Source: Leptogorgia sarmentosa (taxonomy: Eukaryota). From it: a DNA stretch of 64,000 nucleotides. The notes beneath the pieces are model-generated. The model was not told the DNA's origin and ran no database searches. It worked only from the letters and a program-made list of their open reading frames with translations. Made by a program: the position numbers and the translations under genes. Positions 4,749 to 60,826 of this stretch are shown one piece after another; position 1 is the first letter of the stretch, and each line of letters opens with the position of its first letter. The stretch lies in NCBI GenBank assembly GCA_964658305.1, contig OZ210884.1, positions 7,998,001-8,062,000 of the forward strand, written 5' to 3'.

Positions 4749-5586
4749 ATAATCTCACTTGTTGCTATACACCGTTGAAAGTAGACGTAGTTGAAAGCCT
4801 GAATAACGATGTCTTCACAAAAAATCACTGTAATACATGCATTCAACAACTCATCGCCTATATACCCAAGGATACAACTATTTTTGGAACATGAGGTATT
4901 TGTAGACTGTTGTCATAGCAATATAAGAACTCGGGATGGAGGATGTCCACACGTGTTGCTTCGCACAGTGTCCGCGTTTTCAATAACAATTCAATTCAAT
5001 TTCATCTAATCCGTGAGTCGGCCTCAAGCGGGGTCTTTGATTATTCTTTCTGTATATATTTTATTTAAAGGTGTGAAAATAATGGCAAAAAATGGAAAAT
5101 TTTTATCCGGGCCGTATTATCTGTTATTTGCATGAAACTAATTTATTATCCATGTATATCCAATTGCAAGTTTCGTGTTTAAAAATAAAAAGCATTTCAA
5201 GAATAAAAAGCAAGACAATCTTCGCTTGTAGTCTTCATTAGATGTAAAGTTCGTTTTTATTTCGAAGTAATAAGAAGATCGATACAGTCTTCCCTTTACA
5301 GAACGTAAACTTATTCAGAAATCAACAGTGAACAGACAAAATTTATTGTCCAAAAAAAAGGCCCTCGTTTTCATGTGATAATATAGTTCGTTTAATTATA
5401 ACGTCAAACACAATTTTTAATTATAATTATATAATTACCTGTCCACAGGCGACTAACCGAAATAGACGATGCTAAATTATAAGAGGCTTTTTAAAACGCA
5501 TTTATTAACTCAATAGTATATTATACATATCGATTTAATTATATACATGAAAGCTGGGTTCATTCTGGCTACGAGAGCAAAAAAAA

Positions 5587-7102
5587 ATGCAAACTCAGAA
5601 CATTTCATTTTTAAACGAGTCCAGACCGATAGAAAATTATCTTACTTCTGATGAGCGAGCGATTTTAACTGGAGTGTATGTGGTATTGAGTTTTCTTGGG
5701 TTTTTCGGAAATGGAGTTGTGATATATGTTGTCATATCTACGCGATGTTACTTTGATGTTCCTGCTAACATTTTCATCCTCAGTCAAGCGTTTTCGGACA
5801 TGGGAACAGCGCTATCCTTATCCATCTACGTAGTTCATATGTATATCTGGATTTGGGACGTATTCTACTGGTACACAGCTGTAGTTTGGTTGGCTTCTCT
5901 GGGGAGTTTATTTCTGCTCACTTTTAATCGCTTGCTCTCGGTCGTCAACGCGTTCACGTATACTCATCTGATGACATTGACCCGCGCAAAAGTTCTGGTT
6001 GTGCTCAACTGGATTTTAGCCGTTTTCGTTACAGTATATCCTCTTCTTATTCCGTGGCCGTCTCTAAATACAAATCTCGGACGGTACTATGTTCTTGTGA
6101 TAACAGCAATGATGATAATATTTAACGTTTACTTATTTCGCGAGGCTAGAATTCAAGGCAAAAAAATAAAGCGGCAAAATCGAATCGTGACTGGATTGCA
6201 GGTATTTATAACATATGCAATTTTACAACGCCACGATACCGATTTTTAAGCCTATAATCAGTGAATAAATAAAGGAAAGAAATTAAAAGACAAATTTATT
6301 TTGATGATCAACGATTATACTTAACTATAGACGATATTGAATAAATATGTTGTTTGCTAATTTTTCGATGAGCATTTTTTAAGAGTGTCCATTTCTCTTT
6401 CAATTTCACTTATGCTTTTCATTATGAATACAGCGGTATGCACCTGCTAATGCTTTTATTTAAATTGAAAAAGTTGATATATTGGATTCACATTGTGACA
6501 ATACAAAACAAATAGTCTTTATGCATAATGACGTCAGGGCTGGGTGCTATGGAGACCACAAAATGACGTCATTTTACAATTCTACTGTGAAGAGATGTGA
6601 AATTCAAACAGCCTTCACTAATTTACATGTCTTAAAAGCAGATCGAATTGCGTTTCAAGTTGCGAGACAAATTTCATCGTGTAACAGAGCCTTTATATTA
6701 ATCCATTTATTATTTTCGTTTTATGATTTACAGAAAAACCTGAAAGAGGACTTCAAGTCAGTCAGGACTCTGGCCATCGTTAGCGGAACATTTTTGGTCT
6801 GCTGCCTACCATTCACAATTGTAGCGTTTATCTACGGAGATAATAAAGTGTCCATGGAGTTCCAGAGAAACGCCGCGTTCACCGGAATACTTATGTCTAT
6901 CAACGCAATTTCAGATCCAGTTATCTACTATTTCCGAAGCTCAGAGTTTCGGGCATTTTATCAGAGATTCAAACGATCCTGGCAAGCAGCACGAGGGAAC
7001 TCTTTGGAACCAATTCGTCCCTCCAGGACTTTAGCATGGGCGTATAAAATGAAGCGACAGATAGCACCGGTTGAAAATAACGGAGAGAAGATAACTATAT
7101 AG
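5587..7102 (+). CDS. Rhodopsin-class GPCR, two exons (5587-6201, 6734-7102), ~327 aa
   Basis: Exon 1 has TM1-5 (GNGVV, NIFILSQAFSD, TFNRL, NWILA). Phase-0 intron CAG|GTATTT at 6202 to TTTACAG| at 6733 lies in ICL3. Exon 2 has TM6 'FLVCCLPF', TM7 'NAISDPVIY' and helix-8 'SEFRAF'. Confidence 0.9.
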
Positions 7103-7333: not shown

Positions 7334-7353
7334 AGCTAGATTGGAAGTTTGTA

Positions 7354-7570
7354 CAGGGTGTACCAAAAAAAGCAACGAGTATTGAAAATGATCTATTGTC
7401 ATAATTTCAATATAGGCTAACTCTAAGCGCTGAATGTAAGAGTTCAAAATATTGACAGGTGCATATATTAAGTTTGTCTTATTCACAAATTAAAATATCT
7501 TTGTTAGGCCATTGAAATTATGACAATGGGTCATTTTCAATACTCGTTGCGTTTTTTTGGGGACACCCTG
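7354..7570. mobile_element. Tc1/mariner-type MITE
   Basis: TIRs CAGGGTGTaCCaAAAAAAGCAACGAGTATTGAAAATGA... / ...TCATTTTCAATACTCGTTGCGTTTTTTTGGGGACACCCTG, flanked by TA at 7352-53 and 7571-72. Confidence 0.85.
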
Positions 7571-7680
7571 TATACACTTACTCCCAAAACTCTAAATGAT
7601 ATATTCACCAGTGAAGATATGGAAAATATCTCACTGTGTATTTTTCGGTATCTCACTGTATCATAAATATTTTATATTGT

Positions 7681-8124
7681 TATATAGTTGGTGTCAAAGT
7701 TTAATTTTCCTGTTTGCTGATTGGACAAAACCGTATCACGTGCCGGTCCACAAAACGTCATGTACGCCTCCGGTCAAAAATCAAAAAATTATTGACCGGG
7801 CAACAATTAAATGGGCACAATGCGCATGCGCGTCAACCGTGAAGTCCAAAGTTCATTCAATCGTACGATGTTTTAAAATTTAGTAAAATGTCGACTGCTG
7901 TCACTGTTTTTTGTTTTCAAAGTTCACTCCAGTATTAAACCGGTGAATTCATTCATATTTTGACACTAAACTATATAACAAAACACTTATTTACTGAGAC
8001 TGAGGGAAACATTGTGTTTTGTGGCCCCTCGACCGCCATTGTTGCCCTCGGCTTCGCCTTGGGCAACAACGGCGGTCTCGGGGCCACAAAACACAATGTT
8101 TCCCTTGGTCTCAGTAAATAAGTG
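7681..8124. mobile_element. Non-autonomous element with subterminal inverted repeat and terminal hairpin (Helentron/HINE-like architecture, inferred)
   Basis: tatatagttggtgtcaaa (7681) is inverted at tttgacactaaactatata (~7959-7977). It is followed by a ~65-bp-arm palindrome 7984-8124 centred on ctcggcttcgccttgg. Internal CTGATTGG. Confidence 0.6.
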
Positions 8125-8711: not shown

Positions 8712-8885
8712 TATCTGCTGAGCTGACAGTCACTCGTGCCTAATGTCTTAAGCAAAATGCCCCCGTGTGCGGCAAAATTTTGAGAGGCTTTCGTTGCGCG
8801 TGCGAAAAATCTTTCAATATTTTGCCACACGCGCGGGCGTTTTGTTTACGCGAATAGGCACGAGTGACTGTCAGCTCAGCAGATA
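8712..8885. mobile_element. Palindromic MITE-like element
   Basis: Perfect ~31-bp TIR tatctgctgagctgacagtcactcgtgccta / taggcacgagtgactgtcagctcagcagata; imperfect internal symmetry continues. Confidence 0.8.
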
Positions 8886-8908
8886 GTTCTCGCCGTGTAG
8901 CAGGCTTA

Positions 8909-9028
8909 GGCCTAGATCAAACGTCGAACTTTTCATGCGCCGAACCTAATGCAAATGAGCTCAAACAAAGAACTTTGCTCATTAACATTAGGTTCGGCAC
9001 ATGAAAAGTTCGACGTTTGACTTAGGCC
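8909..9028. mobile_element. PIF/Harbinger-type MITE
   Basis: GGCCTA..TCAAACGTCGAACTTTTCATG.GCCGAACCTAATG TIR and its inverse; TTA on both flanks (8906-08, 9029-31). Confidence 0.8.
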
Positions 9029-9031
9029 TTA

Positions 9032-9173
9032 GGCCTGTTTCAGACGTCGAACTTTAGTCGCGTCGAATGCAATTAGAACAATAGATAATGAGATAACTTG
9101 CCTCATTATCAGCTCATTATCCTTTGTCTGAATTGCATTCGACGCGACTAAAGTTCGACGTTTGAAACAGGCT
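9032..9173. mobile_element. Second PIF/Harbinger-type MITE, abutting the first
   Basis: GGCCTGTTTCAGACGTCGAACTTTAGTCGCGTCGAATGCAATT ... AATTGCATTCGACGCGACTAAAGTTCGACGTTTGAAACAGGCT; TTA flanks at 9029-31 and 9174-76. Confidence 0.8.
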
Positions 9174-11706: not shown

Positions 11707-14700
11707 ATGGGACCTAAAACATCGCTTCTGAAAACTTTCCTTCTCGTCCTACTTTTTCATACCTTTTTCAAGGCTAATGCGGAGTCAACCAAGGAACTGA
11801 TACCGAAAAAGGAGTGCGAGAGAATCTCGGGCGTGGAGGTTCGTTATAACGAGTTCTACGAGCTTTATCTAGGACATGACACAGACAAAGGTGAAGTTCA
11901 GGAACAGGGAATTATATACAAAAGTTTGGCAAAAGCAGTGAACGCTTGCTGTCCTGGAATGGAGCTTAATTTCACATTTGTGAATACATCAGTGGAGTGG
12001 CTGGTGCAAGACGATATACTACATCACCATGAAGTACAAAACAGCTCCCATTTGATCTTTTATTTTCCAGAGTTTACATCCCAGGGAAACCTAGGTACGA
12101 TGGAATATTGACCAATGGCACGCGTGAATGACAGCATGAGGTCGCTATTTGAAATGATCTAAAATCACACGCTTCGAGCTGTTAATTTCCTTCGTGTGTC
12201 GACTGAGAATTATTTATAGCCAGAAATCATTGAAACGACTACGGGTCGAACAAGGTTGTGCATGAAACCACCATTTGAACAGTTTCGATTACACTTTCTC
12301 ATAATCTCATAATATTTTCACTTACGTATTTTTATTTAGAGGTCTACTCTCATCAGATTCCGTTTCTAAAGTTACGAAAGTCGCCAGGATTCGCTTTAGT
12401 GATGTTGAAGAGCGAGTCACATTTGCACTTATCTGCGTTGGATATTTTTGGATCATCCTGGTTAATTTTCGCCCTAGTATTGTCTCTGTCTTGGGCAGTT
12501 GGAATCATCGGTTGGGCATTGGTATGTATCAAAATTGTATAGGTACAGAAATCCAGCCAATACATGAATGGACACTATGGTCATTGTCTTAACTATAACT
12601 ATACAAAAAATCTGATCTGAAGACAATGCAGATATACTTTTTGCGTCTACGTTGCTAAGCAACGTAGAGGCTATGTAAGCGTAAAATTTCTGGCTGGCTG
12701 TGTTTCAACAACGAATATGACGTATTTTGACGTCACGAGCTCTCAAGGTAAACACTAACACGCAAACGTTGTTATCTTTACCGATGATGTATCGAACTTT
12801 CGGCAAATTAACTCGTGACGTATGCGATTTAGCTACTATGGCGTGTTTCGCAAGTGTGCGTTGTTCTAACGTTCGTTCGAAGGACTAATTTCCAAGCTTC
12901 TGTAAAGCGATTTCTAAATGGGGTTTTCATTTACTATTTCATGAGATTATACTTGTATTATATTTGTATTAGATTTGTATTATACTGATCATGAATACGG
13001 CGAGTTTCAAATGCAAGGCATCAACGTAGACGCTTGCACGCATCGTGCGTGCCTATTTTTTAATCTTAGAATCGAAGAGAGTATGCCATCGTATCTCTGA
13101 GCAATACAGATTTGTCGTTCGGTTCTAGTACTTATTTTGGCGGAATATAAACCTAAAGACTGGGCAAGGTTTACGTCTGGCCGTTTTTATGAGGCTGTAT
13201 AAAAAGAGGGGTAAAAAAATTAGAGAGTATTCCCAGAAAGCTTTCTTTTAAGCTGAGGAAGACAGACATCTGGCTTTCTTTGTTATGTAGTTAGTTAAAG
13301 TGTACTTCCACTGTTTATTCTTTGTTATTGATTTTTAACCCAACTGAATGGATTGCGAAGTCGAAAAATATCCGTGTCGAATAATAGTCGACATTTTATG
13401 AGATTTGAAGATTTTCTTTATGTGGGGACCTACATCCCAGTCCGAAAGCACATGCAAATCCCATCGTCTCAGTGGCTGTCCTGCTCAAATCATGATCCCA
13501 TTCTCTACTGTTTTCTCGCTGGTGAATCCCAGTGCATGAAATCCCATTTTCCCAGCAAAAAATAAGCAAATCATGGTTCCCAGTTTACCCCTACAGGACC
13601 CTCAATGTAAAACGCAACGCACGTGCATTTTTTCATCTATAGGACCACTACTCGAACCCCGAGGAATTTCCTACGCCATTTGTCCGAGGAATGTTTGAAG
13701 GATTTTGGTGGGCTACGATTACAATGACGACTGTGGGGTGAGCATATCCACTGAATACGCGAAAATGTCATGTTTTTTTGGGGTCGACACCCACTAATTC
13801 CCAAACCCTACGTGCACCACTTAATTTCGGTGCCCTCATCGTGAAAATTCTGATTATTCTCCAATTAATTAAAACCATAATTTTCGCGTTTTTTTCAACC
13901 TGCATATCCATCTTCCCATGTTTCAGATACGGTGATAAAGCACCCAAGTCAATCTTCGCTCGTATTCTTTGCATTTTCTGGATATTAGCTGGTGCCATTC
14001 TTCTTTCACTCTACACGGCAAACATAACATCCATCATTACTACCAGCAGAATTGAGCAGAATTCACGGACTATGGGCAAAAAGGTAAAAATAAAATATAA
14101 AGAATATCACCTCTTTAAAAACGCCCCTTATTAAAATATTCTTTCCCTTCAACTCGCATGCACAATTATTCCACCACGTTATTACAGGGTGTTATAACAT
14201 TTATTGGATTATCATTGCACTAGATCGGAATCGTCAATATGAAACATTTTGTGGAGGCAGAACTGAATCTTGGAGCTCAAATTATAGGTAATAATTACAC
14301 GGTGCTTCACGACATAATATTACTGATTCGCCGTCTGTGAATAACTCCTGCAATATTTATAGGTTTTACTTCTGACAAACGTTATTTGAAAATTTGCGGA
14401 CAAACGCTATACAATGTCTCCGTTTTTACTTACATACTCTACTTCTGTGAACAGTAGGGAGGTTGATAAGTCGGATGTGATACAACAATTCTTCACTGCG
14501 CATGCGTTTCCAGTCTTTCCCCACAGTAGTTTTGATTGAAGTGACCGAATGACTTTTCGCTCTACTGCAAAGGCAATCAGCAGGGAATTACAGAAATTCT
14601 ATCATCTTTTTTCAGAATACACCAAAGTTGAATCCGCCCTAAATGCTCTGTCGAACAAGACAATCGATCGACTGTTGTTTCCGCACTACCTGGATTTACT

Positions 14701-16006
14701 TTATCTCATGTCTGACCCTTATTACCGCTCAGGATCGCTCTCTGATATCTATATCGCGAAAGAACTGGATAAATCTTATCAGATTGGAATGGTGTTGTCG
14801 CATGCCGACGCTTCATCTATCCGCAATAATGAATTTTATACTTGTTTGGAAATTATGACATCTAGAGTTGCTTCTGAGGTATATATGGACTTAGGGTCAC
14901 GAATATTGTTGTTTGGGGGTGGGGTTAGGAGAGAATACCAGCTTCAGTAAATGATCAATAATCTTTTGGTCATGAACGGCTGTTGTGGAATACCTCGCCC
15001 CACCCTGCCTCTCACTTCACACCCGTGTATCAAGGCCTTTATACTGTATACTACACCATAAAGCACTCTAAACTATCTTAGTACACGATGGTAAGTCTGA
15101 TTTAGACGTCGAAACTTTCTTGTGTCAAACCCAATGTAAATTAGCTGAAACAAAAGTCATATTTACGTTATGTTCGGCGCATGAAACGTAAGAGGTCCGG
15201 GGCCGGTTGTTCGAAAGTTGGATAGTGCTATCCATGGGATAGCGATGTTTTCAAGCCTCCAAAAACAACCCGTTCATCGATCTGGTTCAGATTAAACTTT
15301 GGCATTTTCAAGTTGGACTTTTGCTGCATCAACTGCCAGGACCATATCTGCAATTTTATAGCTTTTTGAACATTTTTACAACAGTTAAAAAAATCACTAT
15401 CCAGTGGATAAAGTTTCCGACTTTCGAACAACCGACCCCTGAACTAAGGCGAATTATGTAGATATAAATTTAAACCTTACGTGTAATTAAAGTTGTATTA
15501 ATTTGTATTAATTATGTATCCTTATATTTAGCACGATTACGACTACTCTCGCATTGATGGCTCCATCATTGATGAAACCAAGAACACCTTTGACACAGGA
15601 GTCACTCTACAATATCTTTACGGCATATTGGGTGTGGTTGGAATGATGATCATTCTTGGGGCAGCTTTTGATATCTACAATCACTGCTACAAGTCTAGAG
15701 GAATGGCAAAGCAAAAGTCTTCAGGTAGGGTACATTGATTTACTTGAGCAGTGAATCGGCCTGACGGATTTCAATTTTGAAATTAATCTATGCAAAAAGA
15801 AGTGGTTTCAAGAGAAATTTGTTGAGCAGAACACGAATATATGAACATGCACTCCTTCCAATCAACCCTCTAACTACAGCAGCCTACAGCCTTGGCTCTT
15901 CACAAACTTTCCATGTCATATGATAAAAACTGCTCTGGCAACCTCGTTATTAATTATCAATGCTTGCCTTTAAGATTACGATCGGGGCCCTTCGAGGCCT
16001 ATCTAA
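11707..16006 (+). CDS. GluR0/AvGluR1-like ligand-gated channel with K+ selectivity filter, paralog 1 (~457 aa, 8 coding exons)
   Basis: Exons 11707-12094, 12340-12521, 13643-13737, 13927-14083, 14224-14287, 14616-14878, 15532-15724, 15975-16006; all GT-AG, in frame, 1374 nt total. Signal peptide; M1 (WLIFALVLSLSWAVGIIGWAL); pore GFWWATITMTTVG|YGDKAP; M3 ...SLYTANITS; S2 MGKKIGIV...YTKVESALNALSNKTID; M4 YLYGILGVVGMMIILGAAF; ends DYDRGPSRPI*. Confidence 0.88.
15198..15441. mobile_element. MITE in intron 6 of paralog 1, nested in a degenerate Harbinger-like MITE
   Basis: TIR GGGGCCGGTTGTTCGAAAGT / ACTTTCGAACAACCGACCCC. Flanks (15095-15197 and 15442-15450) resemble the 8909-9028 element. An internally similar decayed copy lies at ~10290-10450. 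Confidence 0.7.
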
Positions 16007-16199
16007 TGTTTCTATAAACAGAAACGTTCGCGTGATGAGTCGAAAGATATGGTGATGGACCAGCAAGAAGATGCACGTAATCCCCGTTACAATCATGCTA
16101 TTTATGAAGTTTAAAAAGTAATCAACTGTCATGTATCTAACTTCAGATCTAATAGCCGCACTGATCCAAGTATTGCACTGAATTGAGACATTAAATAAC

Positions 16200-16970
16200 A
16201 TTATATTATTTTTTTATTTGTGCATGCCTAGTGATATTTTTTGATTTCCTGCAATCTGATTGGCTGCAGCAGCGGGCGGCTTTTTTACGATATCTTGACC
16301 GTGGTCCAAAAGTGTTATTTTTTAGCGATTTAGTTTGTTTACAAAGACTCCTTTTAAATTTTTAAAGTTTTTTTAAAACATTCAAAACGAATTTAGGCGA
16401 TAAAAAACACATGAAAGTTCATTTTATTATGCTAAGGGATATTTTAGGGGATATTTACAGCAACAAAAACAAGTCTCATCAGTATGAACAAAACAAAACA
16501 TTCTCGGCGAAATATTTCGGGTCTAACGCGTATTTTAACCATGTTTATATCGTGAAACGATCGGGAAAATAAATAATTTTAATAAGTTTACCTTTTTCAT
16601 TGTAATGTTGAGAGGAAAAGCATCAATATTGAAGCAAATGCGTCAATAATGAAGGGTTTTTTCTCACTTCGTCTTGGCTGTTTAGCAGCCATACTTGCGA
16701 TAGAGTAGCAAAGTAAACAAACACAACTGATCTCAAATCTAGTTCGCAACACTGGAATTTCTTATGAGTTGTATTATAGCTTCGAGCATAAAAAAAAAAG
16801 TTATTTACCGGCTGGGAGGTCCGTACTGGAAAATATTTTGTCTCGTTTTTGAGACCTCGACAAAATATTTTCCAGTACGGACCTCCCAGCCGGTAAATAA
16901 CTTATTTATTTTTTTATGCTCGAAGCTATAATACAACTCATAAGAAATTCCAGTGTTGCGAACTAGATTT
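16200..16970. mobile_element. CTGATTGG-containing non-autonomous element ending in a ~235-bp near-perfect palindrome (16735-16970)
   Basis: aaatctagttcgcaacactggaatttcttatgagttg...atttaccggctgggaggtccgtactggaaaatattttgtc is mirrored on the right arm, apart from a small A/T-tract indel. Confidence 0.65.
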
Positions 16971-17873
16971 TATATAGTATATATTTTACTATAGGACATT
17001 AGTTGGATCACAATTTCTGCTAATATTTCATATTTAATAATCGCTCAAATACATAATTATGTTGTAATAATTAAAGTACTGCACTGAACTGAGAGATTAA
17101 TAACATACAATTTTACTATAAGACATTTGTCGGGTCACCATTTCTGCTAAAATACACTCAAATACATGTCGTGATAATCCATAAAGGTATGTACCGTACC
17201 GTACCGTACATAGCTGAAGGTGAAAACAGGGGATCTCATGAAGGTACGACTGATCAGTCCATATTACCGAACCTTGAGCATTGCGGTTAAAAATTTGGGG
17301 AGACTGGCCTACCGGTTTTCGTTGGTTAAGGTAAGTTATATTACCAATTCCACTCGCCCATTTACTTCTGGGTAATTGCCATAACTGTGGGCAAATAAAA
17401 ATCTGAGCATGCGCATTGGTAAAAACGTTTCCCACGTACGTATCCATAAAGACCAGAACTAAGGGTAGGTATTCCCATATGCATGCGAACATCAGCCCAT
17501 ATCCCAACTGAACACCTCAAAAGACCGCAAAAGCACAATATTACTTAAATAATTAAAACCATGTTATTGTCATTATTGAAGGGAATATTGCCTTCAATAT
17601 TGGATATTAGCCGGCTTTCTTGTTTCTTAAGAAAGTATTTGGATTTTTAACTGACGTGCAATTAGCCTTAACAGCACGATCATGGAATTAATTGTCTTTT
17701 CTGCATAAGACTGCTGATTTTTTTCATTTGTATTTGGTTAATAGGCGATTAAGCCCCGCCTTCGATTTAATGATGTATGCGTTCCGGAAGCGATGTTTTT
17801 CTTCATAAGAGATATCAAAGTCAAGATTGCTACATGAATTAAACTACCAGGCCTATACTCAGATAACTTAATC

Positions 17874-20800
17874 ATGGAATCAGTGGTAAGTACCATGTAT
17901 TGTTAGTTCGAAAAATTGTCGTAATTCATTAATTTATTCTTTATTCGTTTTCACGCCGAAGCAGCATGTATTTACATTATTTACCTCCAATCACACTGGA
18001 GGGCACTTAAATACTGCATATACCTCCGCCATGCAGCAGCATATTTCGGACGTTTTATTTTACCTCATCAGTCAAACATTTAAATATCAACAGAATATTC
18101 ATATTTGAGAGAATAAAGGGAAAATCTTAACTCTCTTAAAAGTTCTTTTTCAATTTTAAAAGAAATTAAACCAAATTCCTATCCATCAATTAATTTTTCT
18201 TTGTAAGCTTGCAGATGTATCAGTTTCGCACGTTCGATCAAAATATCGACAGAATATTCATATTTGAGAAAGTAGAGGAGAAATCTTAACTCTCTTAAAA
18301 GTTCTTTTTCAATTTTTAACGAAATTGAACCAAACTTTCATCAAATCTTACGTGTTCGTTTTTGTATTTCTTCAAAACGACTATCGCGTGTCTTGAAATA
18401 TTTCCAATTTTTTTTATAGTTTTTTTAGTTATTTTATTCAAGTATGTGCACCGTTGACCGTTGCGTTGCTTTATAAACTATTTGGTATAAACTTCAAGCA
18501 ATGAATTTAATATTAACGTCTTTGTTATTTGCATGGTTAAAAAATACAGTTTAGCTATGCTTACAGTAATGAATATTGATCATTTTATTATCATAAGCTT
18601 TCGGCGGATATACCACTGAAGATCCAAGCTTACGGACTGAAAGCTCTGCGATAATAAATCTATACAAAGAATAAATTGTAATGGATTCATATCTGTTGTT
18701 ACTATGAGCATGCATTTGCCAAATTCGGCAAAACAGTCCGTATAGCTTTGCTGTTGTTACATAGTCGTAGCTAATATGAGGGTAATTTTAGCTTAAGTTT
18801 ATGTTTAAACTAAGATTAATAACAATTTCCTATTTATATCAGACAACACTTGCTAGCAACGTTAGCTATATACACTCTTGTGCAAAGATATTTCAAAATA
18901 GTTAATTGAAATTTCAATTAACTTTGAACAGATGCAAATTTAACCAACCTATACGCATGTTTGTAAGAACAATTGAAAGCACTGCTAGCTTTTATGTAAA
19001 AATCATGTGCAAAAAGAAGGAAATGATGAGAATTTATGTATTTCTGAAGAAACATTTCCAAGCAATTTTCTAGTTTGGCACTGCATTGCGGGAACCTGCG
19101 GGTCACAGATCATGTTTGTTTTAATCAGAGCGATTCAAAGTGCATCATCAGCTATTCAGTATAATAGCGCAGCCAACTCTATGATTATATAGCGTAGCCA
19201 ACGTCCGGTGTAGCCAAGATATATGCGACAGAGCACTCATTATTTGTTTTCTAGCTCCCCCATTCCTTCGCTCCATTCATTCTCTAAGACACAACATCAT
19301 GTTAAATGTGACCATACTCAACGTCAACCTGACATGTTGAACAAAAAATAGCTCTGTGACTGTATAGCGTGGCACAGTGATCCATACCACACAGCACGCG
19401 GCAATACAAGATTATTGCAAGTCTTTTAAAGCCAAAATACGCGAAGTTTATGTGTTTATTAAAATTAATGTTCAGTTATTTACAAGTCGATCTTTTGTCT
19501 TTTATCTTTACCAATAACTTATTTTGTTATTTCAGGTAGCCAACCAGAGTAGCAGTGTTGCAAAATTCCAGAAATTCCTTGAGTCACAGGATGTTGGACC
19601 AAGAATGCTGTGTTTGGATGGCGGTGGAATACGCGGTCTCGTTTCCGCGATGGTTGTTGAAGAGCTTGAAAAAATACTGAACCAAGCTATTATTAAAAAG
19701 AATGATTTTCTATTAATGGCAGAATCCAGCCTAGATGACCCTGATGGAAGTGGTGAAACACATCATGAACAACAAAAGTTTATAAGAGAGATTCGTGAAA
19801 AGTTACCTAAAAAGTCGCCCGAAGGACAGTTCATCAGATTGTGGCATTTATTTGATGTCGTGATTGGTACAAGCACTGGTTCTCTCCTTGCTTACGGCAT
19901 CGGAATGACAAGGTTATCAGGTAAAATTGCCATAATTAAAAACCCCTAAAGAATGGTCACCAACAGCAGTCGTTTTTCCTAATGTGCTGCTAGCATTGAT
20001 AAATATACTGTACACAGAGGAACTCCAACATTACTGGGGCCGCGGAAGCTATTTAAATGTGGGGGGCTGAAATTGTTTTTACAGTTTTTCTATATTCTTG
20101 GTAGCATCATTATCACTATTATGACCCAACCCTAGCCTATAGGGTCCACTGCGCCTGAATTAATATACATGGGATAAAATAATTGTTCTTTTTAAATAGA
20201 AAATAATGAGAGAAAATATATACAATCTTAAAAGTAGAGAGACTGATCTAGTGCAACACCTATGCCAAAGAAAGATTTCGGCAGAAGGTGCTTTAGTTAT
20301 AATGGTACCTTGCAATGAAATAATCTTCCCAATGAAAAAAAACTGCTGACTCTTCCATTTTAAAGCAAGAAATGACTTGAAACTTGCTCGTTTATATTCC
20401 ATGAATTATCTTGTAAATCCATTTTTGTTGTTAATTTTCACGCCACTTAAGAAAATTGGCCAACAGATGGCGGTTGAGGCTAACGTCATAAAATAAAGTA
20501 TGTGTCTAGAAACAGGTTTATTGAATATATCTCGGCCTTCTTTCCAGTGGTCACTGCATTGTTGGACTGCCTCAATACATACATTATATAATAATTTTTG
20601 TTACTAACTCATGTATGATCTTATCTGATGCATGAATATCTTAAAATTCCAGGCTATGAATGTCGCGGGTTGTATGAGATTTTAGCAGATGAAATCTTCA
20701 AAGATTACCATCACTTTTCCATGTTGCGGGAAGCGAAGTATGAAAACAAAAACCTTAAAAAGGAACTGCAGAAATTCTTTCCTTATGATTTGGATATGAC

Positions 20801-22373
20801 ACGCATCAACAGCATTCCAATCACGGCTTCTTGTTCGTACAACATGGATAAGGGTCACATATCCCTGTCTGCGACCGCAGGCCTTGCTGACGAGGATGTC
20901 AAGGATATGGTATTGGGGAAATGCATTTTAGCAAGCGCAGCAGCGCCGACATATTTCCCGTCAGTGGAGCATAATGGTGAAAAATATGTTGATGGCGGGC
21001 TCGGAGCTAATTGTCCTGTGTACCATGGATACAGACTGGGAATGAGGCTCTATGACTACGAAGCAGCTCCTGGCGAAAGACCTGATCTCTTTTATGATGA
21101 TACCAAATACGAAAATATGCATCATCCTGCTTTTGTACCACCAGGTCAAAGGTACCAAACAAGACTTTGTCTGTCAATTGGTACAGGTATGCATAGTAAA
21201 ACCTCAGATAAAAGCTCAACTTATGCCCCCCCTCACGCCTTTGTACGTCTATGCGTCTTAATATTTGGTAAACAATTGTTTTCGATTTGGCAGATGTTAT
21301 CAATGCTTTTTGTAAATCAAGGGAATATTAATCAAACATTTTCTAAAAGAAGGCATCTCTGCGACTCATTATCATTATTATCATTATCATTATCAGGTGG
21401 AGGTACGGAGATTGATGTACCAAGCAAATGTCTGGGATGGTTCCAGGGCCTTGCACGTGTTGTATCACAAGCAGAGGGGCTTTGGAGAGTAGTAGAACCA
21501 ATGATGGAAAAGTTGAACAAGTTTGGATGCTTTAATCGCATAAATCCTTCCCCTGATGACCCGAATGGCAAGAAAATAGCGGAGTTTAAGCTTGATAATA
21601 CCGATGTCAAGACTCTAGGAAGACTGGCTGAGCAGTGGTTATCAGAGGAGTGTACACAGATGCAGTTAAAAGAAGTAGCGATGCAACTAATTGCTAAAAA
21701 CTACTATCTTGACTTTTCAGGTAAATCCTGTTTTCCATTAGGCGAATTTGTTCGCACGAACAAGAGTAACAAGGTAAAAAGAAACTTGATTGGCTGGCGA
21801 CATAACCTTCCAATCAAATTTACTTTCCGCCTGCTCGCGCGAAAAAATATCGCCAAAGGGGAAAAGGCTCCATATAGTATCTTTGTACAAACAAAGGTTT
21901 CAAACCTAAAATATTGTACAATTTACTTTTTATGAAGGCGTTTTTCTTTTCTGTATATTTCAGAGATTGGCAAAGGGATTACACCAGGATCAAATGTGCT
22001 TATTCCTTTATCGCAAATCACTCAATCAGTCTTCGACTTCGATGCCGGACACTTCGTCCCTGAAGCATACAAAGTTATCCGAGATTTGAAGGAAAAATCA
22101 GAAGATATCACTTCAGAATGTAAAGTAAAGATATTCATTATCAATCAAGGGTATTCTCCAGTGCAACTTGGTCTTTCATTTATATGCCCTGACGCACCAT
22201 TTGTGCTTGTGGTCAAGTTTAAACTACCAGGAATGGGAGTGAGCAAAGAGTTCGAAAATCAATGCTACATAAATGGGGGAAGGAGAATTTTTCTCTCCAG
22301 CCACACTCCCACTGGTAGCAGTGGGGGAGGATCATTTGAAGCAAATAAAACCTTAGAACCCTTCATGGCTTGA
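17874..22373 (+). CDS. Patatin-like phospholipase (PNPLA/iPLA2-type catalytic domain) with unrecognised C-terminal domain, ~554 aa
   Basis: Model: 17874-17885 (MESV|GTAAGT, less certain), 19536-19920, 20653-21186, 21397-21720, 21964-22373; 1665 nt in frame. Motifs LCLDGGGIRG (oxyanion loop), GTSTG (nucleophile Ser), ASAAAPTYF, YVDGGLGANCP (catalytic Asp), LSIGTG, FNRINP. Confidence 0.85.
18082..18340 (+). repeat. Direct repeat, ~100-bp block at 159-bp period, in patatin intron 1
   Basis: aaatatc(a/g)acagaatattcatatttgaga...aaatcttaactctcttaaaagttctttttcaatttt at 18082 and 18241. Confidence 0.85.
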
Positions 22374-23892
22374 AAGTTCAAGAAAATAAGTTCGATTTCG
22401 GAAATGGCAGGAACAGAGGCGAACTGAACAATATGACAACAATTGGCACCATTTTTAGATTAAGAACAGACAATGTTGACAATAAAACGTGTTCATTATT
22501 TTGTAATGTAATTGTTGTTAATCATCTGATAAGTAAACGAGTTTCTAATTTGCCAAAATAATTACAGAAAGTACTTAAGTCAGAGAAAGAAAAAGAAAAA
22601 TGGCTTATTATGTTTCAAATCATTTCATGTTTAAGATGATGAAAAAATAGGTAATTTGCACTTTTGAAACCTGGTGCGAATTTTGCGACGGCCGCGAATC
22701 CATCCAATTTGAAGGGTTGCAAATGTGCTGGGCAAAAATACTGAATATATGCACTAGTCTTGTGCAAATGGCATCAACAGAGGAATTTGATTGCATGATA
22801 AAAGTAATTTTTACTTGGTAAATATTGTTATACATATTTTGGGGATGGTGGCAATGTGCTTTGGCTGTAGCTGTAAGAAGAAGAATCCTGTTTAAACTTC
22901 GGAATTAGCAATGTTTGCGATTTTATATATTCCATTTCAGTTTGGAAATTTGACTTCCCAATATTTTTATTTATGTCCATCCACTTAAGTAAAATGTTTT
23001 GGCGATATAGTAATATTTTTAAGACAAGAACTACTGCGGTCTGCGGCAAGACTACAAAAAAGCCCTGAGAAGGCATAAATACGGGAAAATGCAGAGAGCG
23101 GCCGGGGAGAAACGAGAATGGATTGAAACACAAGTTAGATACGTTAATATATTGTTTGCACTAAAGCTTTGCATATTTATATTAATTAACTGCCGACGTA
23201 TTGTGGCACTCAAATCTGTTCACTGTTTAATTCCAGAAAGTTTACGTCTTACAAATCTAAGATTGTCTAGTTATCATTATTTCGAAATAACAACGATTTG
23301 GAACTTTTCATATAAAGGAATATGATTGAATATTGCGCACATGTGAACATCACCCAAATCACAACTGGACACCTCAAAAGACCGCAACAGCACAATATTA
23401 GCTAAATAATTAAAACCATTTAATTGTCATTATTGAAGGCAATACGTATATGCGTAGCTATACATAACATGCATAGACGTGAGATGATTCTCACGGTGTT
23501 TAAACTGTGACCAAACAGGTACAGTATCTGGTTCGTATTCTACCCCTCTGTATAGGAATTGGGAACTGTATTTTGAGGTATGACTTATTTTGTACTTAGC
23601 TTCGTTACTTTGAGAAGAATTTTGGCACATTATAGCTTTTAGCTTCATACAACAGGACTGAGGGATTTTCAATTACAAATTCCATACGCAAGGGGCAGTT
23701 CCCATTATAGACCAACTTTTGATGTAAACAACGGAAACAAGGTTTTTGCAAAGAACCTTAATTATAAGAGTGACAAAACGTTAACCCTCAAATTTGGTTA
23801 AAAAGTGTTCCAATGATACAGAAGATGATATTCTTGCACGATGATAGTTTGCATGGCAAACATTTCTCATTATTGCGTTGCGTGCGAAAATT

Positions 23893-23985
23893 TTCCAGGG
23901 CCTTGCAAGTGTTGTATCACAAGCAGAGGGGCTGTGGAGAGTAGTAGAACCAATGATGGAAAAGTTGAACAAGTTTGGATGCTTT
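23893..23985 (+). pseudogene. 93-bp duplicated fragment of patatin exon (source 21441-21533)
   Basis: ttccagggccttgca(a/c)gtgttgtatcacaagcagaggggct(g/t)tggagagtagtagaaccaatgatggaaaagttgaacaagtttggatgcttt; 2 mismatches by eye. Confidence 0.9.
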
Positions 23986-25202
23986 CATCATCAGTAAAAT
24001 ATTTTCACCAAATTTCGAAATTTTACTACTCAGTTTGAAAGGTTATTTTCGGGAATTCCGGTTTTTCGTCTGGGTTTTCTAGATCAAAGATTAGCCGATA
24101 ATGGGAATTGTTCATTGGCCTCAAGTTGCGATCTCGTTGATTTAAAATGTGAATGGACAAAATAGAAACTGGGTTATTCAATTATATTAAGACGACGTTT
24201 TTCCGTATGTCACGTATCTCGCGCTCAACACTAAAATTCGCAGAAATAAAAGTTTCAAATTTTGAGAATTCTCAGTCGGCAGACTAATTTAAAAACTTTG
24301 TTGGATTTATAATTAATGGTATAAGGTACGCCAAGGAGAAAGTTACGTTTGAAATCTTGTTTTTATTGTTGAAACTATAAGGCTTCAAGGCGCTGGTTAT
24401 GCGAACATAAAAGCTCCTAATTTTTATATTCTTCTTACTTTCTCGAAACCCAAAAACAGTTTTATAGTTAGCAAACAGTGCTGTCAAGTCAATAATCATA
24501 GAAATTTTGAGAGAAACACTGTTATTGTAAACATTGTAAACTGTATTTTGAGCTATGACCTATAACCAATTTTGTATCTAGCTTTATTCTTTTTTTGCAC
24601 TGCCTCATTAGAATATTGTTTCAAATTCTAAAACTGAAAATTTATTAAACATTTATCCACGTTTCAGGTACTACACATTTTGAAGTACATGGTGATGGTG
24701 TAAATTTCGGCCATGCATATGCAATCATTCAGTGGAAAATTGAGACTTGATTATCAACACTCAGAACTCAACACTCTTGGCACCGCATATTCATCAAACC
24801 ACGAAAGCAATATGTTGAGTTTCATTTTACACCAACCCTCACTATTGATGGACTCCACATTTCTAGAGGCATTAGCTATATATTGCTAACATCTAATTTC
24901 CGAAACCTGTGCTCGAAACGTCGAATCTGTCTGTATCGTTTAGGTGGTAAGTAAACTTGTTGATGTTGCTATCAGCAATCTTCACTGCCACATATTGAAA
25001 TGATGGTTGGACTGCACTCTCATGTATTCTTAATTTAATTAAGTTTTGTTTTTCTTCACACAACTGCATGTTTCCTGATTAATAATGTTTGACCTCTTCC
25101 CATATCATATTGTTGGTGATTAGAATTATGTCTGCTGCCTTTTTTCTAGCCTCCTTGTCAGTTTACGTTACGATTGTGAATTAAATTGATCGGCGAGTCA
25201 GA

Positions 25203-28200
25203 ATGCGACTTCAAACATTGCTATTGAAAACTATCCTTGTCCTTGTACTCTTCGATATCTTATGCAAACTCAAAGGCGAGTCAATTCGTAGATTAATACC
25301 GAAAAAAAAGTGTGATAAAATCTCAGGCGTGGAGGTTCGTTATAACGAGTTCTACGAGCTTTATCTAGGACATGACGCGGACAATGATCAAGTTGATGAA
25401 AATGGAATTGTATACAAAAGCTTAAATAAAGCGGTGAACGCTTGCTGCCCTGGAATGGAGCTTAATTTCACTCTGGTGAATACATCGGTGGAATGGCTGG
25501 TCCAAAAAGATATACTACATCACCATGAAGCACGAAACAACTCTCGGTTGATCTTTTACTTTCCTGAGTTTACATCGCAAGGAAATATAGGTACGAGGAA
25601 ATATGCACTGCAGGAATGCATGTGACTAAAATTGACAAATGTTAGACCTGCCGCTATAGTCGCTACCTGAGAGAGAAATAATAGGCTGATTACATCAAGA
25701 AATTTGGGCTCGGGCTGAGATTTCATCCAGACTGTGGACGTATGGAAAGGAGAAGAATATTCTGAATAAGAAACACGAAGTGCATTAAAATATGAGCTTT
25801 TGTTATTCAAATTGTACTCCTCTTTCAATACGTCAACAGCCGGGTTCAAATTCCATCCCGGGCTGAAATTTCTCCATGTATAGTCATCTTCAAGTTTTGT
25901 TATCAATTGGGCTATTTGGCGTAACATTATGGGATATCTATCGTTTTGAGGCTTTGAGCAAAGGTGCAGGGATCACAAGATTACTCGAATTCATTTTGCT
26001 AACTGCCATTATGCGGTTTTTATAAACAAATGAAGTGAATAAAAAATGAAGCTGATAGACTAGGGAAGAAAAGAAAATAGTCAATTCAAACCATGCATAA
26101 ACATTACAATTAACTGTTTATGGCTAGCAATCGAGACGAGTTGGATGCGACCTTAATTATTTCCATGCAGCACGTTTTGTGATATTCATCTGGGCGTAGG
26201 AATTTCCTGTTTATCCTTGAAGCCCAATTACACAACGTGATATGCTAAAAAAATGGAATCATCGAATAGATCATGTCCGTGATTTCAGAGAAATGCGCAT
26301 TGGGAATAATTGCATATCCATTCCACGTTTGTGAGTGTATTAGCATTAAAAGCTTGCGTCGTGACTGAATATTTTTGGCCCAGTTACATGATTATGATTG
26401 CGCCGGAGTGACATCAATTTAGGACGCTTTCCAGTCTTCTCTGCTCTTCAAACGTTTTGTATTTAAAGTTTATGTTTAGCGCTGTGATATTATCACAATT
26501 TAAGTGCTAAATCCACTTTGAAATACCAAAAGTCGCTCGGACAGTATTCTGGTATCGTGTAACTGGGGCCTTAGTGACCTGCGTTTGAATCCCTCGGACA
26601 AACAATCCATGAGTTTGTGAATAGATCGACGTATATACCTGAACGAAAGAACCCAAAGTGAGAGTGAAACAAGGTTTGCATGAAACCTTTAGACGAGTTA
26701 GGTGTCAACTACAACTGCTCATGTAGTATAGTCTCATATTTTCACGTATTTTTATTTAGAGGTCTACTCGCATCAGATTCCGTTTCTAAAGTTACGAAAG
26801 TCGCCAGGATTCGCTTTAGTGATGTTGAAGAGCGAGTCACATTTGCACTTATCTGCGTTGGATATTATTGGACCATCATGGCCAATTTTTGCTTTGGTAC
26901 TGACTTTGTCTTGGGCGGTTGGAATCATTGGTTGGGCTTTGGTAAGTATCAAAATCTGTGGATCCAGATTCCAGAATCCAGCAAATTCGGGATACATTAC
27001 TGCCTACTTGGCTACTTCCCTTATTTGTCGCAGCTATTGAAAAAAAATATCACCATCTGAGAGAGAATACTGCACACGTCAACTTAGACCAAACGTTTAG
27101 ATAATGAATAAAATTTTTACTGATTTTTACATATGCGCGCTACCGTTGATATCGCGCTTGTTTAGTCAAGGTGAAGTTAAGGTGAGTAAATACGGTATGT
27201 GAGATCGAGTTTCACTGAAGTATGTGCAAGTAATTATGTTTCTTATAAAGAATGCTGTCGACAAGTATTTTCGACGTTTTCCAATACATGGCTTATATAT
27301 GATTAGCGTCATGTCTGCACTACCTACATTGGCCACACAAAGTATATTGAGACCCCAATTACACGATACCGTGTCCGCATCGATTGACATCAATTTAGGA
27401 GGCTTTCCAGTCTTCGCTGCTCCTGAAACTTTTTGTACTTCCAATTTTCGTTCAACTTGATGAGATTTAAAGACTCTCAGACTGTATCTTGAACATAACG
27501 TACATTTTTCCACCCACAGGAACATAATTCAAACCCCGAGGATTTCCCTACACCATTTTTTCGAGGAATGTTTGAAGGATTTTGGTGGGCTGTTGTTACA
27601 ATGACGACTGTGGGGTGAGCACACTCGATAGGCATATTTAACGTCTTAGGAAATCAATTGTTTTTATGGTATGTGAACACTGAACATGATTATATGAATA
27701 TGCCCCCCCCCCCCAATTATCGTTCTGGCTACGCCATTGCAGCAAACCTATTTTCCCATGTTTCAGATACGGTGATAAAACCCCCAAGTCAATCTTCGCT
27801 CGTATTCTTTGCATTTTCTGGATATTAGCTGGTGCTATTCTTCTTTCACTGTTCACTGGGAATACAACATCCATCATTACTGCCAATAGAATTGAGCAGA
27901 ATTCACGGACTATGGGTAAAAAGGTGAAAATAAAGTAGAAGCAGTTAATATAATAATTATCTTTCGGCTTGACAGCCGAAAACATCATTCAGCATAATTA
28001 TTCAATATCACGTGATCGATCATATCTAGCATGATCCAATTTCAAATGACCAATTTTCGATCAGAGTATTATAGAATTTATTCCATATTATTGCACTAGA
28101 TTGGGGTGGTTAATATGAAATACTTCGTGGAGACGGAACTGAATCTTGGAGCTCATATTCTAGGTATGAACCAACCTCGTCCCCAGGACCATGCCATTTG

Positions 28201-30276
28201 GGCGATATAGGGGGAGGCCATTTCGTGCCTCCCCTATATCGCGCAAATGGTCCCGGGGACGAGGTTGGGTATAAGCGTGTGCTTTATAACAAATAATAAC
28301 TTATTAATGAAGCGAGACGAGATGCTCTTGTACTTTTTATTATATTAGTTATATTACCCCCAAAAACATCCCACTACAGGCTGTTTCATCCAGGAAGAGG
28401 ATTCCGAGGCAACAGCATCAACGAGCAGCAAAAGTTCTACTCACTACATAAACGATACAAACAGAAACAGGAAAGCGCCTTTGCTGGAAGCGTCGAATCT
28501 GTTTTATCGTTTAGCTAGGCAGTAGATCTTTTGTTGCTGGATGATGACCACTATAAATTGTTTCTCAGCCATTAATCACAGTTTGTCATTTTACTGGAAG
28601 TGGTGCTTGCCATATGTTAAGATAATAAACAATTATTTCATCCACAGCTCTCATTGGGCTTAAATTCGCCCTATTGTGATGCGAATTAGTAGGAAATTTC
28701 AATTCATTATGGGATTACAGAAATTCTATCATCTTTTTTCAGAATACACCAAAGTTGAATCCGCGCTAAATGCTCTTTCGAACAAGACAATCGATCGACT
28801 GTTGTTTCCGCACTACCTGGATTTACTTTATCTCATGTCTGACCCTTATTACCGCTCAGGATTGTTCTCTGATATCTATATCGCGAAAGAATTGGATAAA
28901 TCTTATCAGATTGGAATGGTGTTGTCGCATCCTGACGCTTCATCCGTCCGTAATGATGATTTTTATACTTGTTTGGAAATTATGACATCTAGATTCGCTT
29001 CTGAGGTAGGGACACGTAGGGGCACGTAGGGTGCCTCGCGCGACATTGTTGGCCCGTTGTTCATCCAGCTTCTTTTCCAGCTGCAGAAAACGAATGATCG
29101 TGTTTAGTGGATAAGGCAAAAATGCGCATTTGGTCACGAATCATGTCTATCTCCACTGTTCTAGCGCCTGCACTTAGATAGCCACCGTATAAATTCAGCC
29201 AGAAGCGAGTGCTTTGTAGCAATGGCTTGGAGTGCCTAATTTGTTGGCATTTTGAAGCATGGGAAATTTTGCATGAAAAAGTAGTGTCAAAGCCTCTTTT
29301 CAACTTGTCGCAAAAGTCAATCCGCAAGCTGGCAACGAGTGCTTTCAAAGATTGTGATCTCGTAGCGACCTTACGAGTTGGCTTTTGCGGTGAAAAAGTG
29401 ACCGAAATTCCTTGCCACAGATTGCATGGGGCGAGCCAAAAATGCCCTTATACTTGCCCGCCATTTTATGGAGACAAAATTTCACTGAGAGTAACGGTAG
29501 GAGCACGCATTCTAATTTTATTATTTCTACAGTATACAACCCCACTTACTACATATGTTTTAGCTCAAAAGCAAAAAAAACCCTGTATGTATTTGTATGT
29601 TATAAATTAAGTTCCCTTATATTTAGCTCGATTACAACTACTCTCGCATTGATGACTCCATCATTGTTGAAAGCCAAAGCACATTTGACACAGATGTCAC
29701 CCAGCAATATCTTTACGCCATATTGGGTGTGGTTGGAGTCATTGTCATTCTTGGGGCAGCTTTTGATATCTACAATCACTGGCACAAATCTGGAAAAATG
29801 AGAGAGCAAAAATCTTCAGGTACTTTGATTGTCTTACGCTCTTTAATCACTGCTGGCAAATACCTGGTGAAGCTGTATCAAAGGCGTCTAGCTTAAATGG
29901 TGGATAAGTAAAAAAGCAAATATTAAGAAATCTACATGAGCTTAAAACCAAAAGTAAACTATACTTTTCTGTCTAAAAATAACAACTATGGATAGAAATA
30001 TACATTTAGTCGAAAAAATTTAAGATAAACCACTTACAAGTCGAACAGAAACGTTTTTAATCTTTGCATATACACCATTCAAACCAGGCGTATTTGATAC
30101 AACCGACACCTGATAAATTAGCCAACCGAACCTAATGCAAATGAGCTCAAAGAAAGCAATGAGCTATAGCTCATGCTCATTAAAATCAGGGTTGGCGTGT
30201 GAGAAGTTCGGTGTTAAAAAAAACCTATCAATATTCACCTTCAGAGTACGATCTCGGAGCTTCAACACCCGTCTAA
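25203..30276 (+). CDS. GluR0/AvGluR1-like ligand-gated channel with K+ selectivity filter, paralog 2 (~457 aa, 8 coding exons)
   Basis: Exons 25203-25590, 26760-26941, 27520-27614, 27767-27923, 28100-28163, 28743-29005, 29627-29819, 30245-30276; exon lengths identical to paralog 1 (388/182/95/157/64/263/193/32). Pore GFWWAVVTMTTVG|YGDKTP; M3 ...SLFTGNTTS; ends EYDLGASTPV*. Confidence 0.88.
28171..28268. mobile_element. Short palindromic MITE in intron 5 of paralog 2
   Basis: CCAACCTCGTCCCCAGGACCAT ... ATGGTCCCGGGGACGAGGTTGG with an internal stem gcgatatagggggaggc/gcctcccctatatcgc. Absent from the equivalent intron of paralog 1. A related half-end is at ~54799. Confidence 0.8.
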
Positions 30277-60263: not shown

Positions 60264-60826
60264 TCAAAACGACAAATTATCGTTCTGCATTTCTAAGACC
60301 TTTTTCAAGAGCTGATCTTTGCGGTTCTTTTGTATCCTAATCTGCTGTATAAGACTCCTTTCTTCAGCCTGCAGGTGCAAGATATAGTTGTATGCTTTTT
60401 GAAGAATTGAAACTTTTGGTGCCCTGTCGTTGCCACAAATGTCAGGAATTGCGTCCCTGAGATATTGAAAACGCAATTTGAGTTCATTTCTTCTTTTTCG
60501 TTCCAAAACATTATGTGTGGCTCGGCCAAGTATTTCACAGTCCAGGTCAGATTCATCTCCTGATAAAACTCGTGTTTTTTGTTCAGTACAATTTTCTTTA
60601 TCTGAATCGCTATTACTAGATCTTCTTCTCTTTGTTCCAGAACGAAGGTTGCAAGAGTAATCATGATCAGTGTTTTCCGATTGTGGCGCGCTTTTTACAG
60701 GAATCGAAGGAGATGCATTGTCACATTTTTCACCAGATTCCGACTCTTCTTCTTTCATATTTTCCTCCTTTTCGTCGGCTTTTTGGTTTCCTTCTAATCC
60801 AACGACATCTACTTCTACTTCTTCAT
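60264..60826 (-). CDS. myc: Myc-family bHLH-ZIP gene B, last coding exon only (5' part not found in window)
   Basis: Acceptor TTTTCTAGCAG|; reads (D)EEVEVDVVG (MBIIIb), DHDY, RATHNVLERKRRNELKLRFQYLRDAIPDICGNDRAPKVSILQKAYNYI plus zipper; stop at 60264-66. Confidence 0.88.

Follow-up and report, generated by a model that had tools for sequence, protein, structure and literature searches.

What does an animal genome encode when a protein with the layout of an ionotropic glutamate receptor (iGluR) carries the selectivity filter of a potassium channel? The question is raised by two paralogous genes, A and B, in a 64,000-nucleotide (nt) stretch of the Leptogorgia sarmentosa genome (contig OZ210884.1, positions 7,998,001 to 8,062,000; hereafter the window). 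Both lie on the + strand, from the first letter of gene A at 11707 to the end of the gene B stop codon at 30276. The explanation that we favour, and regard as reasonably probable, is that they encode subunits of the GluR0 type with the K+ filter TTVGYGD, which would conduct K+ and be opened by a ligand outside the cell, probably not glutamate. The family to which they belong is far larger and older than this pair.

Two intact, spliced genes

Genes A and B consist of eight exons each, and all introns are GT-AG (Table 1). The exon lengths are equal in the two genes (388, 182, 95, 157, 64, 263, 193, and 32 nt for exons 1–8), and splicing gives 457 amino acids (aa) apiece with zero internal stops, as an initial annotation of this DNA had proposed. 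That annotation had also described a filter divided by a phase-2 intron. This is seen in both genes, where the intron past exon 3 separates TVG from YGD (13737/13927 in gene A, 27614/27767 in gene B), and the spliced filter region is WWATITMTTVGYGD in gene A and WWAVVTMTTVGYGD in gene B. Two details of the gene layout required revision. Contig joints moved the last exon of gene A to 15975–16006, and the supposed tandem pair, although made up of paralogues on one strand, is not adjacent, as a patatin-like gene lies between its members.

The expectation that transcripts join these exons is supported by contigs from samples X4, X5, and X6, which skip the introns at GT..AG, while contigs of X1 and X2 cover them. 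All seven introns of gene B are joined in this way, as are at least five of the seven in gene A among the joints listed (exons 2–3 and 6–7 are not among these). The intron that splits the filter is one of those joined. The last-exon joint of gene A (15724/15975) is present in all three samples; the last joint of gene B is given six letters leftward, inside its stated slack. Joints of gene A were sought at 90% likeness, and some may derive from gene B transcript. Gene A is taken to be spliced in its own right because its contig depth in X4 (13.5–14.8) differs from that of gene B (30.6–38.3), because there are pieces without a differing letter, and because it has its own last-exon joint.

Comparison of A with B over 447 codons gives a ratio of nonsynonymous to synonymous substitution (dN/dS) of 0.31. 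By part, it is 0.18 in the pore (M1-P-M3), 0.22 and 0.24 in the clamshell halves S1 and S2, and 0.79 in the linker and helix M4. It is practically certain that both genes are real.

A GluR0-type module with an additional helix

Both proteins have the order signal peptide, S1, M1-P-M3, S2, M4, and short tail, with four hydrophobic segments besides the signal peptide and M4 at approximately 406–434. The signal peptide was called by hydropathy and family count, not by a dedicated predictor. This layout, including the lack of an amino-terminal domain (ATD), had been proposed before and is upheld by hydropathy, by a structural model of a homologue, and by the ATD profile ANF_receptor, which matched 0/69 family members; S1 begins directly after the signal peptide.

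The nearest named proteins are P0001 and P0002 of the octocoral Dendronephthya gigantea, which are 67–68% identical. An AlphaFold2 model of P0001, made with a 69-row alignment (predicted local distance difference test 84.4, predicted template modelling score 0.74), contains in order a signal helix, an alpha/beta half, M1, a pore helix, M3, a second alpha/beta half, and M4. S1 and S2 are predicted to form jointly a two-lobed type II periplasmic-binding domain, the fold anticipated in the initial annotation. The Foldseek matches listed for this model were all AMPA-receptor chains comprising ligand-binding and transmembrane domains (E 6e-10 to 7e-9, 12–15% identity, TMq 0.30–0.47), and their high root-mean-square deviation (rmsd, 11–17 A) arises because domain placement differs. 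Residues 35–393 were also compared with 48,161 chains by VIA-align, in which scores no more than 1 Z unit apart count as ties. Type II periplasmic-binding domains scored Z 15.7–14, including BvgS (15.7), amino-acid binding proteins (~15), GluR0 (1iiw, 14.8, rmsd 3.3 over 209 residues), and Nostoc GluR0 (2pyy, 14.6). Lower values were obtained for the rotifer receptor AvGluR1 (4io2, 13.9), plant GLR3.4 (12.8), and NMDA (12.6), ctenophore (12.5), and kainate (11.7) receptors. The modelled clamshell is thus closer to periplasmic binding proteins and GluR0 than to animal iGluR domains (12.6 or below). Pfam gave no match on the S1 and S2 exons and detected SBP_bac_3 or Lig_chan-Glu_bd in 0/69 family members at E 0.01, and NCBIfam gave sub-threshold matches only.

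The first relatives beyond the animal family are proteins of 330–390 aa that combine SBP_bac_3 with a K+ pore, the GluR0 type. Several of these rows are named bacterial and the remainder were assigned by architecture; one relative matches 2pyy at E 2e-33. In a profile–profile comparison of the animal family with 34 such bacterial rows, residues 41–359 aligned with probability 100 and E 1e-48. S2 alone reached 97% (E 2.8e-11) and S1 alone 59% (E 9e-5, 36 columns), while crossed controls gave 0.2% and 5%. Identity to bacterial rows rises to 59–61% in the pore region. The two sets differ beyond this module: a late hydrophobic segment occurs in 179/185 of the family members that extend for 200 residues or more past the filter and in 0/34 bacterial rows, which terminate 160–173 residues past it. 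As judged from these alignments, M4 and the tail are additions to a GluR0-like module. Since the entire S1-pore-S2 module aligns with the bacterial type, the kinship with GluR0 proposed in the initial annotation stands, while its description as a chimera is better replaced by that of a GluR0 module plus M4.

The ligand site

The bacterial rows have the Arg of a T-x-x-R motif in 32/34 and an Asp in 32/34, at positions that we take to be those of iGluR Arg485 and Glu705, as alignment to 2pyy supports. Amino acids are held in iGluRs by Arg485 and by the acidic residue at 705, and a receptor that has lost these is considered unable to bind (PMC6307864). Across the animal family, no offset has Arg in more than 20/197 rows, and the amino-binding site holds Asp in 148/197 and Glu in 15/197, as judged by alignment and not by viewing the pocket. 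The window proteins have no Arg within 121–141 and Pro at 318. Loss of the carboxylate-binding Arg throughout the family, together with loss of the amino-binding Asp in the octocoral clade, points to a ligand other than an amino acid. Glutamate or another canonical amino acid is therefore probably not the ligand, and for the Asp-keeping majority an amine-type ligand would be a guess. That the channel is gated by a ligand through its clamshell is likely.

A different reading of the same residues is that the inverted K+ pore carries a clamshell that binds nothing and serves as a lever or assembly domain, in which case the channel would be a leak, pH- or ion-sensitive, or force-gated, and the window's clade may supply non-binding subunits of heteromers. 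The absence of Arg family-wide agrees with this reading, as do the replacement of Asp by Pro in 13/197 rows (both window proteins included), additional disulfide-type Cys, the fusion of many relatives to fn3/CUB/Ig adhesion arrays of up to 4084 aa, and the silence of the Pfam binding-domain profiles. We consider it unlikely, though a serious contender, since purifying selection on S1 and S2 is approximately equal to that on the pore, and Asp/Glu persists at the amino-binding site in 163/197 rows. Fast divergence of the clamshell between paralogues around a fixed pore would also suit a receptor repertoire.

The filter, the gate, and ion selectivity

TTVGYGD is exact in 183/216 non-bacterial rows, a G-Y/F-G filter is present in 211/216, and no filter match was found in 5/216. 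TTVGYGD, the pore-helix WW, and a downstream Pro are conserved at 94–100% per position. A preference of the channel for K+ is very likely. The gate motif is less uniform. SLYTANITS had been reported for both proteins and is found in gene A, while gene B has SLFTGNTTS. At the SYTAN positions, the family has Tyr in 11/197 rows and Asn in 18/197, so the likeness to SYTAN is confined to gene A and, in these alignments, the iGluR gate motif SYTANLAAF is not kept. These counts led us to dismiss the idea that a K+ filter had been combined with the gate of an animal iGluR.

A ligand-gated channel that is non-selective, or weakly K+-preferring, and hence excitatory would be in keeping with iGluR-type folds, which commonly conduct Na+ and K+; AvGluR1 reportedly conducts both. 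The near-invariance of the filter, the WW, and the downstream Pro makes this improbable in the present family. Moreover, GluR0, with the same filter, is gated by glutamate and K+ selective (PMC12332018, in part), and AvGluR1 is described as K+ selective relative to Na+ (PMC12226733, in part).

Membrane orientation

A hydrophobic N-terminal 9-mer is present in 121/158 full-length members, compared with 9/158 in a control stretch. Conserved Cys occur at 37, 81, 82, and 85 (75–90%), N-glycosylation sequons at 88, 93, 112, and 309 (in S1 and S2), and a basic tail behind M4. N-terminal extensions are carried by 27/158 non-redundant full-length members, and 19 of the 20 long or extended members that were scanned have extracellular domains ahead of the module (CUB, Ig, EGF, fn3, TSP1, LamG, MAM, SEA, and F5/8). 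The signal peptide, Cys, sequons, basic tail, and extracellular fusions together point to a clamshell outside the cell, with the pore loop entering from the cytoplasm. They accord with the extracellular N-terminus proposed in the initial annotation, and we hold with high confidence that the orientation is inverted relative to KcsA and Shaker. A class I PDZ-type motif forms the C-terminus of 14 of the 158 members (background 2.6%, p 8e-5), and gene B has the same type of end.

A K+ channel of ordinary orientation, whether a Kv fragment, Kir, or MthK type, whose regulatory domain faces the cytoplasm would explain why sequence matches among solved structures are dominated by K+ channel pores, and why automatic database names include ‘Potassium voltage-gated channel subfamily F member 1’. 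This is very improbable, as the window proteins have no voltage-sensor helices, only a single helix between S1 and the pore helix, the clamshell is split about the pore, and the signal peptides, Cys, sequons, and ectodomains all argue for the opposite orientation. Readings of the pair as bacterial contaminants, as recently transferred genes, or as pseudogenes can be dismissed despite pore identity to bacterial proteins of up to ~60%, given the spliced contigs, seven spliceosomal introns, animal neighbour genes (GPCR, bHLH), overall dN/dS, and homologues in four animal phyla.

A proposed mechanism and its weak points

Under the favoured GluR0-type reading, four subunits would assemble into a tetrameric K+ pore, the models being GluR0 and an engineered inverted K+ pore under clamshell control. 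In that engineered case, a signal peptide was able to invert a K+ pore, which was subsequently clamshell-gated (PMC6385376, in part). In the coral proteins, the signal peptide would place S1 and S2 outside, with the pore loop reaching in from the cytoplasmic side. Closure of the clamshell around a ligand, presumably not an amino acid given the loss of Arg in the family and of Asp in the octocoral clade, would pull on M3 and open the gate, as in GluR0 and iGluRs. K+ would then exit, and the cell would be hyperpolarised or shunted. The genes would descend from a GluR0-type gene that already had M4 in the cnidarian–bilaterian ancestor, and would have expanded in cnidarians.

Several considerations weigh against this reading. 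K+ selectivity, ligand gating, the ligand, and localisation are all deduced from sequence and analogy. The X4, X5, and X6 contigs represent three samples from one study and are not recorded as RNA, and the structural work was done on P0001, a homologue 67% identical, rather than on the spliced proteins of the window. S1 homology is modest by sequence, leaving the position of the lost Arg approximate, and without both anchors the clamshell of the window's clade may bind nothing. The searches were driven by the pore, which inflates filter counts, and the filter was itself a selection criterion for the 158-member set. Lastly, a TXVGYG filter reportedly need not mean strict selectivity, AvGluR1 being the case in point.

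Distribution and ancestry of the family

Among 1.84 billion representatives, a profile search returned 968 at E <=1e-30, with bacterial rows possibly among these. Members are found in octocorals (8 genes in Dendronephthya; Paramuricea), stony corals, and anemones, with at least 10 distinct genes among 12 rows from Nematostella, as well as in the scyphozoans Rhopilema and Sanderia and the hydrozoans Hydra, Hydractinia, and Clytia. Outside cnidarians, they occur in hemichordates (Saccoglossus, Ptychodera, Glandiceps), annelids (Owenia, Dimorphilus, Capitella), and the brachiopod Lingula, and a cnidarian-only family was dismissed on this basis. Thirteen of the 30 proteins that were looked up by cluster had a named record. 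No sponge, ctenophore, placozoan, arthropod, nematode, or chordate was seen among the named matches in the best 120–150 rows per search.

Two trees were made, a 236-row FastTree (21 of 257 rows without the full module being excluded) and a quick tree of 58 rows, and both contain this family and bacterial GluR0-type rows only. In the 58-row tree, 39 non-bacterial rows lie on one side of a branch (100), eight named bilaterian rows and two other rows form one group (97) amid cnidarian lineages, and the window pair falls in a five-member octocoral group (100). This topology fits the presence of the family in the cnidarian–bilaterian ancestor, with an assumed root and long branches meeting at the bacterial join. 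Because algal, plant, and protist relatives are present in Atlas, old eukaryotic inheritance stands as an alternative to transfer from bacteria.

One tree group (98) comprises proteins with huge adhesion-type ectodomains: P0149, P0142, and P0128 of Nematostella, P0203 of Hydra, P0302, and P0308. Their ectodomains include fn3, LamG, MAM, F5/8, TLDc, and CUB-Ig, and the proteins reach 4084 aa; they are candidate K+ channels with gating by contact or force. A 51-row expansion in the 236-row tree (P0164, P0188, P0068, and others) is represented by ENA and Logan records only, several on contigs of 5–47 kb, and its neighbours in the 58-row tree are hydrozoan and scyphozoan rows.

Comparison with known systems

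GluR0 (Synechocystis and Nostoc; 1iiw, 2pyy) and the Group 1 prokaryotic iGluRs (Ger et al. 2010, PMC2950845, in part) share with the present family the signal peptide, the S1-M1-P-M3-S2 order, the absence of an ATD, a TXVGYG filter, and an M3 of the S-x-F-T-A-x-x-T type. In contrast, the present family is animal and intron-containing, with M4, a cytoplasmic tail, and conserved extracellular Cys; its Arg is not conserved, Asp is lost in the window's clade, and some members have adhesion ectodomains. Owing to the presence of M4 and the absence of the Arg/Asp anchors, the window proteins are best described as a variant of GluR0 and not a member.

AvGluR1 of the rotifer Adineta vaga is said to have an ATD, unlike the present family. 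It is likewise an animal iGluR-like protein with TXVGYG, within a eukaryotic iGluR architecture (PMC12332018, in part), and is amino-acid gated (PMC12226733, in part), whereas the present family lacks the Arg and is broadly multigene. In the literature covered, iGluRs with a K+ filter are described for bacteria and a single rotifer, and AvGluR1 is the sole animal precedent.

Other animal iGluRs (AMPA/kainate/delta/phi, NMDA, epsilon, and lambda) have in common with the family a split ligand-binding domain, the M1-P-M3-M4 order, and a full-length Foldseek match to AMPA receptors, but differ in their ATD, Q/R/N site, SYTANLAAF, and Arg485, at 12–15% identity. M4 and the cytoplasmic tail resemble those of animal iGluRs in position, a likeness that falls short of established M4 homology. 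With two- and six-transmembrane K+ channels (KcsA, Shaker, Kv2, KCNQ) the family shares the pore helix and TTVGYGD, but it has no voltage sensor, is predicted to be inverted, and has a clamshell split by the pore.

As the initial annotation had suspected, no description of the family was found in the literature searched, whose coverage stopped short of supplements (possibly with Kv names) and subscription papers. It has no mention in the covered parts of 10.1101/2024.06.25.600656, PMC12226733, PMC2950845, 10.1101/2021.01.27.428399, PMC13648236, PMC12332018, PMC3483616, PMC13499137, 10.64898/2026.04.13.718258, PMC6385376, PMC6307864, or PMC12749960, and a term count found neither ‘glutamate’ nor ‘GluR’ in PMC9989356. 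A search for literature linking GluR0 to Nematostella or cnidaria found only a paper on a placozoan epsilon receptor. The family would be missed by the usual screens because Pfam detects the pore only, because iGluR surveys demand an iGluR best match and SYTANLAAF conservation (PMC6307864, in part), and because a voltage-gated-channel survey places every candidate in its best-matching known subfamily (PMC12749960, in part).

The chances are about even that the family is an unrecognised class of animal ionotropic receptor: inverted, K+-selective, and inhibitory, descended from a GluR0-type gene that pre-dates the cnidarian–bilaterian split, numbering at least 10 genes per cnidarian genome, retained in hemichordates, annelids, and brachiopods, and responding to ligands other than amino acids or, where CUB/Ig/fn3 domains are present, to cell–matrix contact. 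Fast inhibition in animals is attributed to chloride-conducting Cys-loop receptors. If the proposal is true, the family is a candidate for a new mode of ligand-gated inhibition or sensing in early nervous systems. It would also offer natural animal proteins for testing the old idea that iGluRs arose when a binding protein was joined to a K+ pore of inverted orientation, and its members in Nematostella, Hydra, Clytia, and Hydractinia make it testable in model animals.

The gene pair and its neighbourhood

Table 1. Exons of genes A and B, with positions in the window
Feature	Position	Strand	Content	Support
Gene A exon 1	11707..12094	+	Signal peptide and most of S1 clamshell half, aa 1-129	Joint to 12340
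Gene A exon 2	12340..12521	+	S1 end and helix M1, aa 130-190	
Gene A exon 3	13643..13737	+	Pore helix, first half of filter (WWATITMTTVG)	Joint to 13927
Gene A exon 4	13927..14083	+	YGD, second half of filter; helix M3 (SLYTANITS)	Pfam Lig_chan 4.7e-9, Ion_trans_2 1.4e-6
Gene A exon 5	14224..14287	+	S2 clamshell half begins	
Gene A exon 6	14616..14878	+	S2; Pro318 at the amino-binding Asp site of relatives	
Gene A exon 7	15532..15724	+	Linker, helix M4	
Gene A exon 8	15975..16006	+	Short tail, stop	Contig joint
Gene B exon 1	25203..25590	+	Signal peptide, S1	Contig joint
Gene B exon 2	26760..26941	+	S1 end, M1	Contig joint
Gene B exon 3	27520..27614	+	Pore helix, first half of filter (WWAVVTMTTVG)	Contig joint
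Gene B exon 4	27767..27923	+	YGD, M3 (SLFTGNTTS)	Contig joint
Gene B exon 5	28100..28163	+	S2 begins	Contig joint
Gene B exon 6	28743..29005	+	S2	Contig joint
Gene B exon 7	29627..29819	+	Linker, M4	Contig joint
Gene B exon 8	30245..30276	+	Short tail, C-terminal T-P-V (class I PDZ-type end), stop	Contig joint

No third copy of the gene was found by tblastn within the window. Exon 6 and its flanks (14584–14881 and 28711–29008) are 95% identical between A and B, compared with only 80–81% for exons 1 and 5, a difference that may reflect gene conversion.

The patatin-like phospholipase gene between A and B contains introns and spans at least 19517–22373 (+), with Pfam Patatin matches on two exons (3e-7 and 3e-12). 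Directly upstream of gene B, at 23893–23989, 97 bp of a patatin exon (21441–21537) recur at 97% identity, possibly as a relic of the duplication. Two rhodopsin-family G-protein-coupled receptor (GPCR) genes (Pfam 7tm_1) are located at 964–1893 (-) and 5551–7102 (+). Two basic helix-loop-helix (bHLH) exons, which resemble those of Myc family genes, occur at 35629–41578 (-), where the upstream exon is likely at 40898–41578, and at 60264–60839 (-), with Pfam HLH at 8e-16 and 1e-14. Palindromic elements of 100–250 bp, likely repeats of the miniature inverted-repeat transposable element type, are present at 7345–7579, 7984–8124, 8712–9172, 16735–16970, and 28171–28268, and the element near 16735 lies where DNA-like contigs reach very high depth.

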